A stretch of DNA of 64,000 nt from Nanobdellota archaeon (GCA_043806015.1 JAZDHH010000015.1:13796-77795); one strand, 5' to 3'; counted from the stretch's first letter, positions 6,245-50,938 are shown. The notes: generated by a model not told the origin, from the sequence alone. Numbers and translations are program-made.

Positions 6245-7520
6245 ACTTTGCCAATTCCTGTTTTATTTTTTCTTTTTCGTGCCAGGCCCTTGTTTCGGCA
6301 GCACGAACCAGGAAGGCTGTCCAACGATCCCAATACTTTTCGCTGAGTTCCTCGTCCGAGTTTAATACGCGTCTCGGTTCCTGAAGATTTCCAGAAAGGA
6401 AAATAAATCCATCAGAAAGACCTGCACCCATAACGACGATGCCATGATAGGTGTCATGCCGGAGCCACCCATCCTCACGTGCCATGTCATAGGCGATGGG
6501 AGCCGAAGCGCCGGAATTGTTCCCCCTTCTTTCTACGCCATGAGTGTAGATGAAATCCGTAACAAGATCGTCATCCGCAGACTTGACAAAACCCTTATAC
6601 TGCTTCGCGGCGGACAACAAACCCGGCTTGTTCGGTTGATGGGGAACGACCTGAAAATTATTAGGCGTGATCAAGGGCAGACCTCGCTCTTCCAGAATCT
6701 TATTTGCTTCAACGATGACTAGCGGCATGCGGTCGCGAAGCGTGCGGACGATGAAAGGATGCACGTCATTCCCTTTCATGATGAAATATGGTCGGGGAAT
6801 ATGATCTAGTGTTTCAGGGACAGGAAATTCGCCTTCTCGGTAGCGGAACGGATTGACGAGGCCGGTCGGCATGAGGATGTGATGTCCCTTCCCCCCATAG
6901 GTAGCAGTATCTATGAAAAGGATCTCTGGAGCCTCACTATCTTCGGCGGAAAGGACAAAGGCCGCTGCGCCATCGGAGGACATCACCCTGAATGTCCGAT
7001 CATTGGCAAGAGGATAATAGGACATTGTATCTGTTGCTAGAACCAGGTTCACTTTAGATAGAAGAGATCTATACTCTGGCCCAAACCTCGCGAAATTCTC
7101 TATCTCTTGATGCTGGAGGTTGTCACGACCGACTTCAACCGCGTTGACAAAACCTGAACAGCCCATGATCACATCCAAGGCAGGCTTTCCTTCGATGCCG
7201 AGAAGGTGACTAACCAAGGCCGAGGCTGGCGGCTCAGTGTATTCCCCACTCACATTATGCGCAACATAGACATGGGAGACATCGTCTAACGTCTTTCCGG
7301 CATCCGCCAGCGCCTTTTCCGCAGCGACGGCCGCGAGCACATAGAGATTTTGATGAGGGCCAATCCACCCGCGCGTTTCCACACCAATGGTATTTTTTAT
7401 CCAATCAGCGGTTGTATTAAGGGCAACAATCCGCTCAAGGTGCGTGTTCGGAACTTGGTACTGAGCATCCGCCCTCCCTGTACCAATAACCCGAATAGGC
7501 CTTATAGGGGAAGAATACAT
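6237..7520 (-). CDS. thiolase-fold condensing enzyme, FabH (KAS III)/HMG-CoA synthase-like
   Basis: N-terminal VIGTGRADAQYQVPNTHLERIV and an active-site-like GCSGFVNA match the FabH family. At 427 aa it carries an extension beyond a typical FabH. Confidence 0.65.
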   Translation of the reverse strand: MYSSPIRPIRVIGTGRADAQYQVPNTHLERIVALNTTADWIKNTIGVETRGWIGPHQNLYVLAAVAAEKALADAGKTLDDVSHVYVAHNVSGEYTEPPASALVSHLLGIEGKPALDVIMGCSGFVNAVEVGRDNLQHQEIENFARFGPEYRSLLSKVNLVLATDTMSYYPLANDRTFRVMSSDGAAAFVLSAEDSEAPEILFIDTATYGGKGHHILMPTGLVNPFRYREGEFPVPETLDHIPRPYFIMKGNDVHPFIVRTLRDRMPLVIVEANKILEERGLPLITPNNFQVVPHQPNKPGLLSAAKQYKGFVKSADDDLVTDFIYTHGVERRGNNSGASAPIAYDMAREDGWLRHDTYHGIVVMGAGLSDGFIFLSGNLQEPRRVLNSDEELSEKYWDRWTAFLVRAAETRAWHEKEKIKQELAKST

Positions 7521-7596: not shown

Positions 7597-8103
7597 ATGC
7601 GCGCCTTCATCGCCATCGATTTGCCGCAGGAAATGCATCCCGCGCTGCAGCAGATTCAGGAGCAGATCAAGGCCTTCGGCTCGTTCTCCTTCCCGAGGAG
7701 CTTCCACCTCACGCTGTTCTTCCTGGGCGAAATCTCCGAACAGCAGAAAGAGGACGTCGTGAAAAAGCTGTCGACGGCCCGCTTCTCCCCGTTTTCCTTC
7801 ACCCTGTCGGAGATCGGCTTCTTCGACAAGAGGGTGGTGTGGGCGGGCATCCGGCCTGAGGAAGAGACCATCAAGCTGCAGAAGGCCATCTGCTCTGCCC
7901 TCGGCATGCGGGATGATCGCTTCCATCCGCACATCACGCTCGCGAGGATCAAGCAGGCGAAGCCTGGCCTCAAGGAAGCGTGCGAGGAGATGAGGCTGCC
8001 TTCTGAAGAAATCCGCATCGAGAAATTCACGCTTTATAAAAGCACGCTGCTCGCTGACGGGCCGAGATACGAGACGATTGCCAGCTTCGAAGGATTTAAA
8101 TAA
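7597..8103 (+). CDS. thpR: RNA 2',3'-cyclic phosphodiesterase (LigT/ThpR, 2H phosphoesterase)
   Basis: Two H-x-T/S-x motifs (HLTLFFLG and HITLARI). The length of ~168 aa is typical. Confidence 0.85.
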   Translation: MRAFIAIDLPQEMHPALQQIQEQIKAFGSFSFPRSFHLTLFFLGEISEQQKEDVVKKLSTARFSPFSFTLSEIGFFDKRVVWAGIRPEEETIKLQKAICSALGMRDDRFHPHITLARIKQAKPGLKEACEEMRLPSEEIRIEKFTLYKSTLLADGPRYETIASFEGFK

Positions 8104-8423: not shown

Positions 8424-8498
8424 GGGCCCGTAGCCTAGCCTGGATAAGGCGACAGCCTTCTAAGCTGTAGATCGGGGGTTCGAATCCCCCCGGGCTCA
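8424..8498 (+). tRNA. tRNA-Arg (anticodon TCT)
   Basis: Manual cloverleaf: acceptor GGGCCCG/CGGGCTC with one G-U, D stem GCCT/AGGC, anticodon stem ACAGC/GCTGT, loop CTTCTAA, T arm GGGGG-TTCGAAT-CCCCC, discriminator A. Confidence 0.85.
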
Positions 8499-9555: not shown

Positions 9556-9588
9556 CGTTTAAAAAGATGGGGGAATGCCTTCCCCTTA

Positions 9589-9765
9589 TTGCGGGGGTGG
9601 CCTAGACGACAGCTTTTTACCCTCTCGGGTAAAAACCGGGGAAATACCGGCTGGCCTCTTCGTGTTTCCCAAATTCACTTGGGCAATGGGGGTTTCGGCT
9701 CTGCCTCAAGCCCCCAAAATCTTTATAAGCCAACAAAAAACAAGCATTCATATGCGGGGGTGGCC
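9589..9765 (+). repeat. 13-bp direct repeats (TGCGGGGGTGGCC at 9589-9601 and 9753-9765) flanking copy A of a conserved structured ~110-nt element (core 9610-9715)
   Basis: Exact 13-mer duplication of the 5' end of the tRNA-Cys gene. The enclosed element shares two covarying hairpins with the element at 49676-49785. Confidence 0.6.
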
Positions 9766-9826
9766 AAGCGGCTAAGGCGGCCGCCTGCAGAGCGGCTATT
9801 CGGGGGTTCGAATCCCTCCCCCCGCT
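9754..9826 (+). tRNA. tRNA-Cys (anticodon GCA)
   Basis: Manual cloverleaf: acceptor GCGGGGG/CCCCCGC, D stem GCC/GGC, anticodon stem GCCGC/GCGGC, loop CTGCAGA, T arm GGGGG-TTCGAAT-CCCTC. A T-rich tract follows. Confidence 0.85.
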
Positions 9827-9833
9827 CTTCTTA

Positions 9834-47308: not shown

Positions 47309-47365
47309 AAATATTTAAAGCGGCCTCTTCTTTTCGTCCTTGCCCGCCTCCGGCGCAGCAGCAAA

Positions 47366-47392
47366 AAACCGCCGGTTTTTTGGTCGCTCCGC
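47366..47392 (+). terminator. perfect palindrome AAAAAACCGG/CCGGTTTTTT followed by T-run
   Basis: Read directly. Lies downstream of the gene ending at 47308. Confidence 0.5.
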
Positions 47393-47493
47393 AGGCCCCG
47401 CCTCCGTAGCATAGTAGCCATTGCGGCGGACTTGTATATTGCCGGAGAAATCCGCAGGTCGAGGGTGCAACTCCCTCCGGAGGCTCTTTGCCC

Positions 47494-47928: not shown

Positions 47929-48612
47929 ATGCGAATGATTCTCATCGGACCGCCGGGCGCCGGAAAAGGCACCCAGGTAACGCTAATCCAAAACTATTAT
48001 CAGAAGCATTTCGACCAGAGCATGCCGCAGATCTCCACGGGAGACGAGCTCAGGGCCGCGGTCAGAAATCACACCGCGGAGGGCATGAAAGCGAAAAGCT
48101 ATATGGATGCTGGTCGGCTCGTGCCTGACGAAATCATAATCCCCATTCTTATGGAACGAATCCTTCAGCCGGACTGCGCGTCCGGCTACATCCTTGACGG
48201 CTTTCCCCGAAACCTTGCCCAGGCAGAGAAATTGGACTCCGTCTCAGACCGCGTGGGGACGATAGAGGCCGTTACCTACATCGATGTTCCCGATACTGAA
48301 ATTGTCCGGCGGCTCGTCAATCGACGGGTTTGCCCCCAATGCAAGCGCGGATACAACCTCCTGTTCCAAAAACCCCGTAGCCCAGGCATCTGCGATGAAG
48401 ACGGGACGCCCCTCGTGCAGCGTGACGACGACAACGAAGGGACAATCAGGAATCGGCTGGCCGTGTTCCATCACCAGACGCAACCCCTCCTCGACTTTTA
48501 CAAAAAAAGGGGGATCCTGTACCGCATCGATGGGGCACCATCTGCCCATGTTGTGAGCACTGCTCTCGAGGCTTTGTTGCAACAATTATCGCCTAGCGAA
48601 AAAGCGCCCTGA
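47929..48612 (+). CDS. adk: adenylate kinase (long form with zinc-binding LID)
   Basis: GPPGAGKGTQ P-loop and CPQC…C…D LID motif. Confidence 0.9.
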   Translation: MRMILIGPPGAGKGTQVTLIQNYYQKHFDQSMPQISTGDELRAAVRNHTAEGMKAKSYMDAGRLVPDEIIIPILMERILQPDCASGYILDGFPRNLAQAEKLDSVSDRVGTIEAVTYIDVPDTEIVRRLVNRRVCPQCKRGYNLLFQKPRSPGICDEDGTPLVQRDDDNEGTIRNRLAVFHHQTQPLLDFYKKRGILYRIDGAPSAHVVSTALEALLQQLSPSEKAP

Positions 48613-49537
48613 CCGCGATCGTGGCATAGCTCCCCTTCGGCAAGGAAAAGCTGACTGTCCTTTTCTGGAAACCGGGGTTCAGGTCGTCCGGCTCGGCTGA
48701 TGAGACGGCAAGATCCCCGAGAGGGACAAACGCTGGACGAAAATAACCTTCAGCGCTCAGGCCGTGGAGCTGCCGGATCACAAAATCCCGCTCAGAGATG
48801 CCCTCTTGCGCAAGAAGTGGTGGGATGCGCTCGTCCTCGATCCCGAAACCCGGGACGGGCAATGCGCATTCGTCCACCACTTCCTTCGGGAAAGCCAACT
48901 CCCCTGTCGGGAACTCCACAAGATCATGCAGGCCCTTCCTGATCTCTGCATCGAGAAGGCGGTTGAAGAGCAGACTTTGATAGGAGTGAACCATTATGCC
49001 CAATAGGTTGGTGCGTGCGGAGAGATGCCTCAAGGGATCGTTTCCTTCATAACCGAGCATTCTGGCTGCCCCGGAAAAGTCTTTGGTGACGAGCAGCTTG
49101 CCTATGAGATGATTTTTTCCGGCGACACCGAACCGCTGCTCCCCGAAGTAGTTCGGCATCTTGGAAAGAGCCACGGGGCCATGGTCGAGCTTGCGGACAA
49201 CAAGGGAAAAGCGGTTGCCTTCAAGCTCTCCGAGGGAAAGGCGCTCCTCACGGGAGCCGAGGAAGCTCAGCGAAAGCTGCGGAAGCTCGAGATCGCTGTG
49301 CGGCCCGTTATATAGCGACACGAACTGTGAGGTCACTGCTCGCTTGTCCTTTAGCCCTGCGAGATTGAACCATTTTGCAGGCTTATGCAAAGCTTCTGCA
49401 AGCCGGGTGATGGCCTCGTCATCCGTGAGGTCTCTCTTGGTCAGCCGATAGAAGGCGTAGGGCCCCTGCCCCTTCACATCATGATGGGCGATTTCCTCGA
49501 CCACGAAATCCTCGGGAAGGCGCTTGACCTCAAACAT
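48593..49537 (-). CDS. truD: tRNA pseudouridine synthase TruD/Pus7 family
   Basis: MFEVKRLPEDFVVEE N-terminus and NYFGEQRFG motif. The ORF-track extension to 49753 overlaps the tRNA and was rejected. Confidence 0.8.
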   Translation of the reverse strand: MFEVKRLPEDFVVEEIAHHDVKGQGPYAFYRLTKRDLTDDEAITRLAEALHKPAKWFNLAGLKDKRAVTSQFVSLYNGPHSDLELPQLSLSFLGSREERLSLGELEGNRFSLVVRKLDHGPVALSKMPNYFGEQRFGVAGKNHLIGKLLVTKDFSGAARMLGYEGNDPLRHLSARTNLLGIMVHSYQSLLFNRLLDAEIRKGLHDLVEFPTGELAFPKEVVDECALPVPGFGIEDERIPPLLAQEGISERDFVIRQLHGLSAEGYFRPAFVPLGDLAVSSAEPDDLNPGFQKRTVSFSLPKGSYATIAVRALFR

Positions 49538-49590
49538 GGCAGGGGTAAGGTAAAAAGGTTTAAAAAGCTGCCGCAATAGCCAGGTATCAC

Positions 49591-49835
49591 GAGCCTGTAG
49601 CGCAGCCTGGTAACCTCGGCGAAGGTTGGGCAAACAGCGCGAGTGCCTCCTAAGCACTAGGTCGGGGGTTCGAACCAGCTTTTTCCCCTCGCGGGGAAAA
49701 ACCGGGGAAATACCTGATTGACCCAGGTATTCTTCCCAGAAAAGAAAGGTCAATGGGGGTTTCGGCGTTCCGCCTCAAGCCCCCCAGTTGCTGCAAGGCA
49801 ACATCCCAGAAGCTCCGAAAGTCCCCCCAGGCTCG
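49591..49835 (+). tRNA. tRNA-Arg (anticodon CCT) with two putative non-canonical introns (D-loop ~49615-49636; T-loop 49676-49822)
   Basis: Acceptor GAGCCTG pairs with CAGGCTC 230 nt downstream. D stem GCGC/GCGC, anticodon stem AGTGC/GCACT, loop CTCCTAA, T stem GGGGG (49664-49668) with CCCCC (49823-49827), discriminator G then CTTTTTTC. Confidence 0.55.
49676..49785 (+). ncRNA. copy B of a conserved structured element (core of the putative T-loop intron)
   Basis: Shares CAGCTTTTT-hairpin-AAAAACCGGGGAAATACC and CAATGGGGGTTTCGGC…GCCTCAAGCCCCC with 9610-9715. Compensatory changes: ACCC/GGGT versus CCCC/GGGG, and GGC/GCC versus GGCG/CGCC. Confidence 0.5.
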
Positions 49836-49846
49836 CTTTTTTCACC

Positions 49847-50938
49847 ATGGACCCTGTGTTGATCAATGAGGGATGGCGCATCTTTTTACGACGCCTGCGG
49901 ATCGGGTTATGCGGCTATCCGTCGTATGAAGGCTCGAGCGATGACATATGCGCCGCCATCGTCGACCGATGCTGGAACGGCACGTATTTCATGACCAGCG
50001 CAGGCCATTTCCGAGAGTTCTGGACGCGCGACTTCGGGCTCTGCATCGACGCCCTCCTCGCGCTCGGGCATAAAGAGAAGGTGAGGTCGACTCTTGCCTA
50101 CGCGCTCGACCGATTCTCGAGAACCAGGTTGACTACCACCATCAATCCCGCAGGGAAGCCTTTCGACTTCCCCACCTATGCCCCTGATTCCCTGGCCTTC
50201 CTCCTCCGAAGCCTCGCAAGGCTGCATGACCGGACGCTTGTCGACCATCATCGCCCTTTTCTCGAGAATGAAATCCGGCGCTTCCGGGAGACTGTGTTGG
50301 ATGAGCAAGGCGCGGTGCGTAAGGACCGGGAATTCTCATCCATCAATGATCATGGACGTCGGAGAAGCTCCTGCTACGACACGTGCATGGCCGCGATTGT
50401 CCAGCGCTATGCACGGGAGCTCGGCCTTGATGCTCCTTGCGAAACAGACTATCCGCGACTCCTGAAACAGCGATACTGGAAGGGGGATCGCTTCATCAGC
50501 GATCTCGGCCAGGGATTGGTGACCGGTGATGCCAACGTCTTTCCCGCCTACTGCGGCGTCTGCAGCGATGCGATGGCCAAGAAGGCGCTTGCCGCGATCC
50601 GACTGCTTGGCCTTGATAAGCCAATGCCTTTGAAATATCACGCAGGTCGCACGACAAGAGGCAATGCCTACAGCTGGCTGGCGCCGGGCTATGAACGACA
50701 CACGGTCTGGCTGCATCTCGGTTTCGCCTATCTCGATGCGGTGGCAATGCATGAGCCTCATCTTCTCAAACCCTATCTCGACGCTTACGACCTGTTCATC
50801 GGCAAATACCGCAACTTCTTTGAGGTGGTTGACGACCGGCTCCGACCGTACCATAGCCTGTTCTACGCGTGCGACGACTCCATGCTTTGGGCCGCCAATT
50901 TCCTCAAGCTGAAAAAGCTTATAAAGCACCGCAGGTGA
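49847..50938 (+). CDS. (alpha/alpha)6-barrel glycoside hydrolase-like protein (GH63/GDE-like)
   Basis: …GYPSYEGS…FWTRDFG… motifs. Internal Met at 49847 chosen because the ORF extension overlaps the tRNA. Confidence 0.45.
   Translation: MDPVLINEGWRIFLRRLRIGLCGYPSYEGSSDDICAAIVDRCWNGTYFMTSAGHFREFWTRDFGLCIDALLALGHKEKVRSTLAYALDRFSRTRLTTTINPAGKPFDFPTYAPDSLAFLLRSLARLHDRTLVDHHRPFLENEIRRFRETVLDEQGAVRKDREFSSINDHGRRRSSCYDTCMAAIVQRYARELGLDAPCETDYPRLLKQRYWKGDRFISDLGQGLVTGDANVFPAYCGVCSDAMAKKALAAIRLLGLDKPMPLKYHAGRTTRGNAYSWLAPGYERHTVWLHLGFAYLDAVAMHEPHLLKPYLDAYDLFIGKYRNFFEVVDDRLRPYHSLFYACDDSMLWAANFLKLKKLIKHRR

Follow-up and report, generated by a model that had tools for sequence, protein, structure and literature searches.

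An interrupted tRNA-Arg(CCT) gene of a DPANN archaeon and a structured intron module present in three tRNA contexts

The 64-kb stretch of archaeal DNA analysed here in its whole length (the window) carries, at 49591-49843, what is with a probability of nearly nine in ten a functional gene for tRNA-Arg(CCT) from a DPANN archaeon, split by two introns of the bulge-helix-bulge (BHB) type that would be excised by protein enzymes. A tRNA-Arg(CCT) with two non-canonical introns had been proposed at this site by a sequence-only reading, and in silico splicing, the folds of the BHB motifs and the orthologous genes of relatives confirm it, with slightly changed boundaries. The exons are intact, splice motifs lie at both junctions, the intron positions are conserved in relatives, and the larger intron contains a structured module with homologues elsewhere and with covarying base pairs. 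The gene as such belongs to the already known multi-intron archaeal tRNAs; the module is an additional finding, and looks like either an intron family moving between tRNA genes or a small RNA made by way of tRNA processing.

Exons, introns and splice junctions

All features of the gene lie on the plus strand. An archaeal TATA box, TTTAAAAA (49559-49566), ends 25 nt before the mature 5' end, and similar boxes precede, with the same spacing, tRNA-Arg(TCT), a tRNA-Cys 5' fragment in the window and the tRNA-Arg orthologues of the related loci L001 and L002; its promoter function is suggested by this position and recurrence. Exon 1 (49591-49610) provides the 5' strand of the acceptor stem, U8, A9, the 5' strand of the D-stem and the D-loop up to G19; exon 2 (49634-49674) the remaining D-arm, the anticodon arm, the variable loop, the 5' strand of the T-stem and U54-A59 of the T-loop; and exon 3 (49822-49835) U60, the 3' strands of the T and acceptor stems and the discriminator G, the CCA end not being encoded. 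A run of six T residues (49837-49842) is probably an oligo-T terminator of the archaeal type. The acceptor strands GAGCCTG (49591-49597) and CAGGCTC (49828-49834), the CTTTTTTC that follows them at 49836-49843 and the CCT anticodon (49649-49651) are all found where they had been read in the sequence, while the limits of the introns had been set 1-4 nt off. Thus, intron 1, correctly recognized but placed at about 49615-49636 (22 nt), is a 23-nt insert following G19 in the D-loop (49611-49633), and intron 2, whose length of 147 nt is unaltered, moves by 1 nt from 49676-49822 to 49675-49821, between A59 and U60 of the T-loop. Both assignments come from a scan for BHB motifs, the minimum free energy (MFE) fold of the precursor and the comparison with relatives, and the register of both introns is fixed by the BHB geometry together with the uninterrupted D-loop of L002 and the colinear intronless gene of L025.

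As long as the introns are in place, neither ARAGORN nor the Rfam tRNA model reports a tRNA at 49591-49843, so that the check by ARAGORN that had been suggested fails on the raw sequence and succeeds on all spliced versions, every tested splice register being called as tRNA-Arg(CCT). The tRNAs that the two programs do report in the window are tRNA-Arg(TCT) at 8424, tRNA-Cys at 9754 and an intron-containing tRNA at 47400, with no others and, in particular, no second tRNA-Arg(CCT) in the 64 kb. The genome would, therefore, seem in an annotation to be devoid of tRNA-Arg(CCT). Removal of both inserts restores a canonical cloverleaf, as is the case for archaeal BHB introns: the product is a 75-nt tRNA-Arg(CCT) in which the T-loop reads canonical UUCGAAU, and U8, A14, G18, G19, U33, G53, U54, U55, C56, A58 and C61 are all kept.

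The archaeal splicing endonuclease cuts between the second and the third nucleotide of each 3-nt bulge. With this rule, all position pairs were scanned for a 4-bp central helix, 3-nt bulges cut after the second nucleotide, and flanking helices; the best pair for the large insert is 49674 as last exon base with 49821 as last intron base, and that for the small insert is 49610 with 49633. At intron 2 the motif is a near-canonical hBHBh', with the 5-bp T stem as exon helix, a central helix of UUCG (49669-49672) with CGAA (49816-49819), and bulges AA↓C and AG↓U (arrows, predicted cuts). Beyond the bulges, one C.C mismatch is followed by a 7-bp helix of AGCUUUU (49677-49683) with AGAAGCU (49808-49814); the mismatch in the place of the first pair of this outer helix, and the competition of the helix with the first module hairpin, HP1, for the U run, count against it. 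At intron 1, the relaxed HBh' form is found, with a central helix of GCCU (49605-49608) with GGGC (49628-49631), a 5' bulge GG↓U, a 5-bp intron helix (AACCU/AGGUU) and, on the 3' side, a 5-nt loop, AA↓ACA. The motifs that were to be sought at both junctions are thus present, the full pair of bulges around a 4-bp helix at intron 2 and only its relaxed variant at intron 1.

The unconstrained MFE fold of the 245-nt precursor contains the acceptor, D, anticodon and T stems as well as both motifs (-101.1 kcal/mol, z = -3.3). The intron 1 fragment, when folded alone, is not more stable than its shuffles, and the support for this intron is mainly comparative. The fold of the precursor, the orthologues and the match to an intronless gene together bear out the proposal of archaeal BHB introns at the non-canonical positions 19/20 (D-loop) and 59/60 (T-loop). 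A chance control, in which a motif was defined by a 5-bp exon helix, a 4-bp central helix and an intron helix of at least 7 bp, returned 14 motifs of the quality of intron 2, its own included, among an estimated total of roughly 5x10^7 position pairs in the window, or ~3x10^-7 per pair; such motifs are not rare across the window, but only one pair rebuilds the cloverleaf, so that a chance match precisely there is very unlikely.

In the proposed course of events, transcription would start from the TTTAAAAA box a few nucleotides upstream of 49591 and end at the T6 run, and the precursor would fold into a cloverleaf in which the D-loop intron is presented as HBh' and the T-loop intron as a near-canonical hBHBh'. 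The splicing endonuclease would then cleave each bulge between its second and third nucleotide, and an RtcB-type ligase would join the three exons into the 75-nt tRNA, with predicted joints ...AGCCUGG-ACAGCGC... and ...GGUUCGAA-UCCCCCC..., and probably circularize the introns, the predicted circular junction of intron 2 being ...CUCCGAAAG-CCAGCUUUUU.... Neither the endonuclease nor an RtcB ligase is among the roughly 60 ORFs of the window that were scanned with Pfam.

Host and orthologous genes

The genes of the window, as assigned by Pfam on ORFs, include GatD/GatE, ABCE1, MCM, RadA, RPA and an archaeal primase. ABCE1 and the gene that directly follows the tRNA match proteins of an NCBI MAG labelled 'Nanoarchaeota archaeon' (locus tag V1735_05405) at 100% identity, the next-closest relatives are Nanoarchaeota and Woesearchaeota MAGs, and the G+C content of the window is 58%. 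Judged from these gene sequences, the host is a DPANN archaeon, Nanoarchaeota/Woesearchaeota-like. Splicing endonucleases (EndA) with an extra loop have been associated in DPANN archaea with many disrupted tRNA genes, some of which escape detection (Kaneta et al., PMC5829648), a picture into which the gene of the window fits.

The tRNA lies in a block conserved in relatives, which consists of ADK, TruD (on the opposite strand), the tRNA, a 363-aa protein, a glycosyltransferase and GatE. The number of introns in the syntenic tRNA-Arg(CCT) genes varies from three (L001) to two (L002 and L114) to none (L025 and L155), and in these genes introns are found only at D-loop 19/20, anticodon 37/38 or T-loop 59/60. 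The L001 gene (2178-2328) contains a 21-nt D-loop intron after G19, an anticodon-loop intron and a 35-nt intron at 59/60, and that of L002 (1418-1520) an anticodon-loop intron and a 12-nt intron at 59/60. With its uninterrupted D-loop, AGTCTGGATA, L002 sets the register for intron 1 of the window. In the anticodon loop, the introns of L001 and L002 have relaxed motifs only. ARAGORN leaves the orthologues in L001, L002 and L114 uncalled, as it does the gene of the window.

Further 59/60 introns in tRNA-Arg(CCT) were found by a pattern scan over species-representative genomes, with lengths of 12 nt in L016, 33 nt in L030 (Aenigmatarchaeota), 44 nt in L114 (Nanoarchaeota), 75 nt in L052 (Woesearchaeota) and 139 nt in L108. 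The introns of relatives at this position, therefore, span 12-139 nt, most of them 12-44 nt, as compared with 147 nt in the window. The two long ones, in genes on the reverse strand at about 2303-2515 (L108) and about 2691-2864 (L052), are unrelated in sequence to the module. Introns at 19/20 recur in L001, L016, L052 and L114, and their central helix covaries, being GCCU/GGGC in the window, L001 and L016, GCUU/AAGC in L052 and GUUU/AAGC in L114.

The intronless Woesearchaeota gene of L025, GAGCCTGTAGCGCAGCCTGGATAGCGCGGCAGCCTCCTAAGCTGTAGGTCGGGGGTTCGAATCCCCCCAGGCTCG, is colinear with the spliced product of the window, from which it differs by hand count at six of 75 positions (69/75, about 92% identity); five of the six differences fall in the anticodon stem, and every pair is still formed. 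L155 likewise holds an intronless tRNA-Arg(CCT) at the syntenic site. Orthologues, thus, carry either introns at the same sites (L001, L002, L016, L030, L052, L108 and L114) or an uninterrupted junction (L025 and L155). On this comparative evidence, the gene is a bona fide tRNA-Arg(CCT), the 19/20 and 59/60 intron sites are old in the lineage, and the intron content turns over rapidly at this one syntenic locus.

The module of intron 2 and its copies

The conserved element that had been noticed in the large intron is real. The first ~110 nt of intron 2 match 9610-9716 of the window (76% identity over 110 nt, E 7e-16), and homology, folds and a covariance model delimit a structured module at 49676-49786, in which CAGC is followed by hairpins HP1 (49680-49701) and HP2 (49704-49737), a linker and hairpin HP3 (49755-49784); a further hairpin, HP4 (49787-49802), comes after the module and is specific to the copy in tRNA-Arg. 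Both copies of the window fold into the three hairpins. HP1, which is UUUUUCCCC-UCGC-GGGGAAAAA in the Arg copy and UUUUUACCC-UCUC-GGGUAAAAA in the copy at 9610-9716, shows a compensatory change of C-G to A-U; in HP2, the 5' strand is invariant between the two, while apex and 3' strand differ with pairing kept; and in HP3, GGGGGUUUCGGC...GCCUCAAGCCCCC, one base pair at the top has gone from both strands together. By hand count, about 4-6 of 73 columns differ in HP1, the HP2 5' strand and HP3, as against about 22 of 36 (about 60%) in the HP2 apex and linker; invariant blocks of 18 and 16 nt stand beside diverged segments. A 2-nt indel between the copies destroys any shared reading frame.

A third member was found with a covariance model, R1, built from the two window copies only and, therefore, without knowledge of the sequence it retrieved. 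This is L114 7117-7190 (minus strand; 22 bits, and 56 bits after refitting), the interior of an 81-nt canonical 37/38 intron (7111-7191) in the tRNA-Thr(UGU) gene at L114 7075-7228 (minus strand) of the Nanoarchaeota MAG RS_5_44. A canonical BHB (CUUG/CGAG) with bulges UA↓A and AG↓A is formed at the intron, splicing in silico gives a 73-nt tRNA-Thr(TGT), and ARAGORN does not call the gene, which lies upstream of ADK and is syntenic with the tRNA-Thr at 47400 of the window, where a 13-nt intron alone is found. As in the Arg intron, the module begins directly after the 5' splice site; it comprises HP1 and HP3 without HP2, and these two make up almost the entire intron. Homologous introns are, thus, found in non-orthologous tRNAs at different positions, 59/60 of Arg(CCT) and 37/38 of Thr(UGU), the pattern by which a transposed intron is recognized.

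Across the three copies, six of 25 base pairs are changed on both sides and 98.6% of cells are paired, whereas slid controls give 0-1 such pairs, figures that come from three sequences only and from an alignment fitted to the model. Independent folds of all three give HP1 and HP3 (z = -3.4, -2.5 and -3.3), and the sequence in the middle of HP3 (GGGUUUCG/CUCAAGCCC) does not vary between genomes. Both the compensatory changes and the unevenness of the conservation suggest that selection acts on RNA structure, whether in favour of some role of the RNA once released or of the module's own propagation. As to its distribution, there are two copies in the 64 kb, one of them outside any intron and without a BHB; the module is absent from the orthologous Arg introns of L001, L002 and L114, and no further copy was met in roughly 1.2 Mb of relatives' loci, including the ABCE1-flank loci of the closest relatives and L155-L157. 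When genome, metagenome and viral collections were scanned for exact patterns, zero or chance matches only were obtained, and phage and plasmid collections gave none, which leaves a viral or plasmid origin without any match in the collections.

The copy outside an intron is at the tRNA-Cys locus, on the plus strand. A strong, consensus tRNA-type TATA box, TTTAAAAA (9558-9565; assigned by position and recurrence), is followed by a decayed copy of tRNA-Cys nucleotides 1-19 (9591-9609), the first 12 nt of which are identical to 9754-9765, by the module at 9610-9716 (HP1 at 9614-9635, HP2, HP3 at 9688-9715) and by an intact tRNA-Cys(GCA) at 9754-9827, detected by ARAGORN and Rfam (61.6 bits). Residual similarity to the Arg intron runs on past the module to about 9747, and in this tail a weaker TATA-like TTTATAA (9722-9728) corresponds in the alignment to the region of HP4 in the Arg intron. 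The relic exon breaks off at about D-loop 19/20, the same site as that of the D-loop intron in tRNA-Arg. A direct repeat of 12 nt, GCGGGGGTGGCC, stands on either side of the insert.

In the BHB scan, no BHB can be drawn at this locus in any register. Splicing of the Cys copy was, therefore, rejected, an alternative fold through the upstream acceptor strand being a trivial effect of the repeat; so was a split or permuted tRNA gene, as a complete tRNA-Cys (61.6 bits) adjoins the fragment and there is no BHB. By its layout, the locus may represent a stage on the way to the gain or the loss of an intron. It may derive from a former tRNA-Cys with a 19/20 intron, to which an intronless copy was later joined; or intron-derived DNA may have been inserted with duplication of the target, by analogy with the tRNA-Thr fragment of Caldiarchaeum (PMC3293823); or it may be an independent small-RNA gene under a tRNA promoter.

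Several known identities were tried on the module or the insert and discarded. For a box C/D RNA, there is no UGAUGA in any copy, the only CUGA (49715-49718) is not kept in the Cys and L114 copies, and a K-turn is missing; the boxes and the pocket of an H/ACA RNA are absent when looked for in the sequence. In Rfam, no snoRNA, ribozyme, RNase P or SRP family matches the module at E<=10 and no family reaches its threshold. A group I intron was set aside because Intron_gpI does not match at E<=10 and 147 nt are too short for its core; a small peptide gene, because of the frame-breaking indel; and an intrinsic terminator, because a U run is missing after HP1 on both strands. The module bears what we take to be a loose likeness to an ORB-like dyad of replication origins, in the wrong context. 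A CRISPR repeat was likewise dismissed, as the match to CRISPR-DR57 (24.6 bits) stays below the threshold of 39 and concerns one copy only, with no array and no cas gene in the scanned ORFs; the resemblance, which consists of HP1 and the following GGGGAAAU (49677-49713) and is not shared by the Cys copy, is probably due to chance.

Readings of the module, known systems and neighbouring genes

Multi-intron tRNA genes with non-canonical BHB introns were reportedly described in the work of Marck and Grosjean in 2003 and of Sugahara in 2008. They occur in Thermoproteales, in ARMAN/Micrarchaeota and in other DPANN archaea (PMC3239211; PMC5829648). The gene of the window resembles them in having several protein-spliced introns outside the anticodon loop, with strict or relaxed (HBh') BHB motifs, and in being missed by tRNA finders; it differs in its host, an uncultured high-GC (58%) Nanoarchaeota/Woesearchaeota-like MAG, and in a 59/60 intron of 147 nt, a considerable length beside the 12-44 nt of most relatives, two of which, however, have introns of 75 nt (L052) and 139 nt (L108). 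Here, the 59/60 intron, short in most relatives, would have been enlarged by the roughly 110-nt three-hairpin module.

For Thermoproteales, related introns in different tRNAs have led to the proposal of transposition, the mechanism of gain or movement being unknown (Fujishima 2010, as summarized in PMC4090602). As far as that summary goes, the family described here resembles those introns in joining different tRNA isoacceptors and canonical as well as non-canonical positions, and is unlike them in belonging to DPANN, with three members known from two genomes, in its structured module with compensatory changes, and in having one copy outside an intron, behind a tRNA-type promoter of its own. 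The tRNA-Thr(GGU) of Caldiarchaeum subterraneum, with a 5' fragment upstream of the complete gene and an insert between the two, has been linked to intron gain (PMC3293823); the Cys locus has the same order of tRNA 5' fragment, inserted DNA and complete gene, but the Caldiarchaeum insert is 1.8 kb long and encodes a recombinase, whereas that of the Cys locus is about 150 nt long, non-coding and homologous to a tRNA intron. Finally, a box C/D sRNA resides in the intron of archaeal tRNA-Trp, and animals produce tricRNAs (PMC4536317). The module would be similar to these as a structured RNA in a BHB intron with predicted release by splicing, probably as a circle; it is dissimilar to the tRNA-Trp box C/D sRNA in the absence of C/D boxes and K-turn, and no guide function is evident.

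Our preferred reading of the module is an intron family whose members have moved from one tRNA gene or position to another, in the manner proposed for Thermoproteales. It would form a small family of intron-resident RNAs, with sites at Arg 59/60 (window), at Thr 37/38 (L114) and, as a relic, before tRNA-Cys (window). Among the accounts of its nature, the one to which we give the most weight, somewhat short of even odds, is that of a selfish or neutral passenger, which spreads between tRNA genes, is tolerated by virtue of BHB splicing and has no function, the Cys copy being a dead relic. The presence of the module in three tRNA contexts and positions in two genomes is in line with it, and so are its absence from the counterpart introns in close relatives (L001, L002 and, in L114, the Arg intron) and the Cys copy without BHB, flanked by the 12-nt direct repeat of the tRNA 5' end. 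Precedents are found in tRNA 5' fragments left after integration of mobile elements (PMC3293823) and in the related introns of unrelated tRNAs, to the extent that these are covered by the summary of Fujishima 2010 in PMC4090602. Against it stands the uneven divergence of the window copies, with HP1, the HP2 5' strand and HP3 near-identical and the HP2 apex and linker mostly changed, and the compensatory changes speak for selection on RNA structure, although a structure required for mobility would give the same signal; moreover, no recombinase or transposase is among the scanned ORFs of the window. The same features, namely the invariant 18- and 16-nt blocks next to diverged segments, the covariation of HP1 and HP3 around an invariant HP3 middle and the significantly stable folds, together with the strong TTTAAAAA boxes in front of both window copies, are those to which a functional small RNA that exploits tRNA promoters and tRNA-processing enzymes would appeal. 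We regard this as possible and distinctly less probable, given that box C/D and H/ACA features are lacking, no Rfam family attains its threshold, HP2 is dispensable in L114 and only three members are known. By analogy with the box C/D RNA in the intron of archaeal tRNA-Trp, such an RNA might be cut out of BHB introns and circularized, or else be freed from the tRNA-Cys leader by RNase P or by termination of its own.

It is very improbable that we are dealing with a pseudogene, in which a repeat element has inserted into a tRNA-Arg(CCT), destroyed it and ended its processing. The failure of standard detectors, the unusual length of the insert and its copy outside any intron could be taken as signs of decay. 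However, all exon positions are intact in a product about 92% identical to its intronless orthologue, promoter and terminator are retained, the BHB motifs sit exactly at the junctions, relatives have introns at the same sites, including those of 75 and 139 nt, and there is no other tRNA-Arg(CCT) in the window. More speculative than either account of the module given above is a composite view in which HP1-HP3 would be an undescribed RNA family of tRNA introns (37/38, 59/60 and perhaps 19/20) of Nanoarchaeota/Woesearchaeota-like archaea, spliced out as a stable, probably circular RNA, the HP3 core (GGGUUUCG/CUCAAGCCC) would be a protein site serving a cellular role or the movement of the intron, and the Cys locus would be a preserved intermediate of gain or loss. 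Whichever account holds, a structured intron module in three tRNA contexts, together with a locus of seemingly half-finished intron gain or loss, makes up a family that can be traced across DPANN genomes.

Some observations concern the neighbouring genes. tRNA-Arg(TCT) is preceded, at a distance of 320 nt, by a gene for a LigT-like 2H phosphoesterase / 2'-5' RNA ligase (7597-8103); two tRNA genes and a copy of the module are in this region. The tRNA at 47400 is a tRNA-Thr(TGT) (47400-47486), mistyped as Ser(AGA) by the intron mode of ARAGORN; its 13-nt intron at 37/38 (47437-47449) forms three of the four central-helix pairs, and within 50 nt upstream there is no TATA box, while a palindrome, AAAAAACCGCCGGTTTTTT, is present at about 47363-47381. 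Two long ORFs, 48593-49753 (minus strand) and 49718-50938 (plus strand), extend over tRNA-Arg and the intron in it; the TruD/Pus7-like protein in fact begins at 49537 and the conserved 363-aa protein, which has no Pfam domain, at 49847. Such spurious ORFs are set by gene callers over genes of this type and could easily bury the tRNA; in L002, the corresponding intergenic region contains a called 'gene' of 103 aa immediately after the tRNA.
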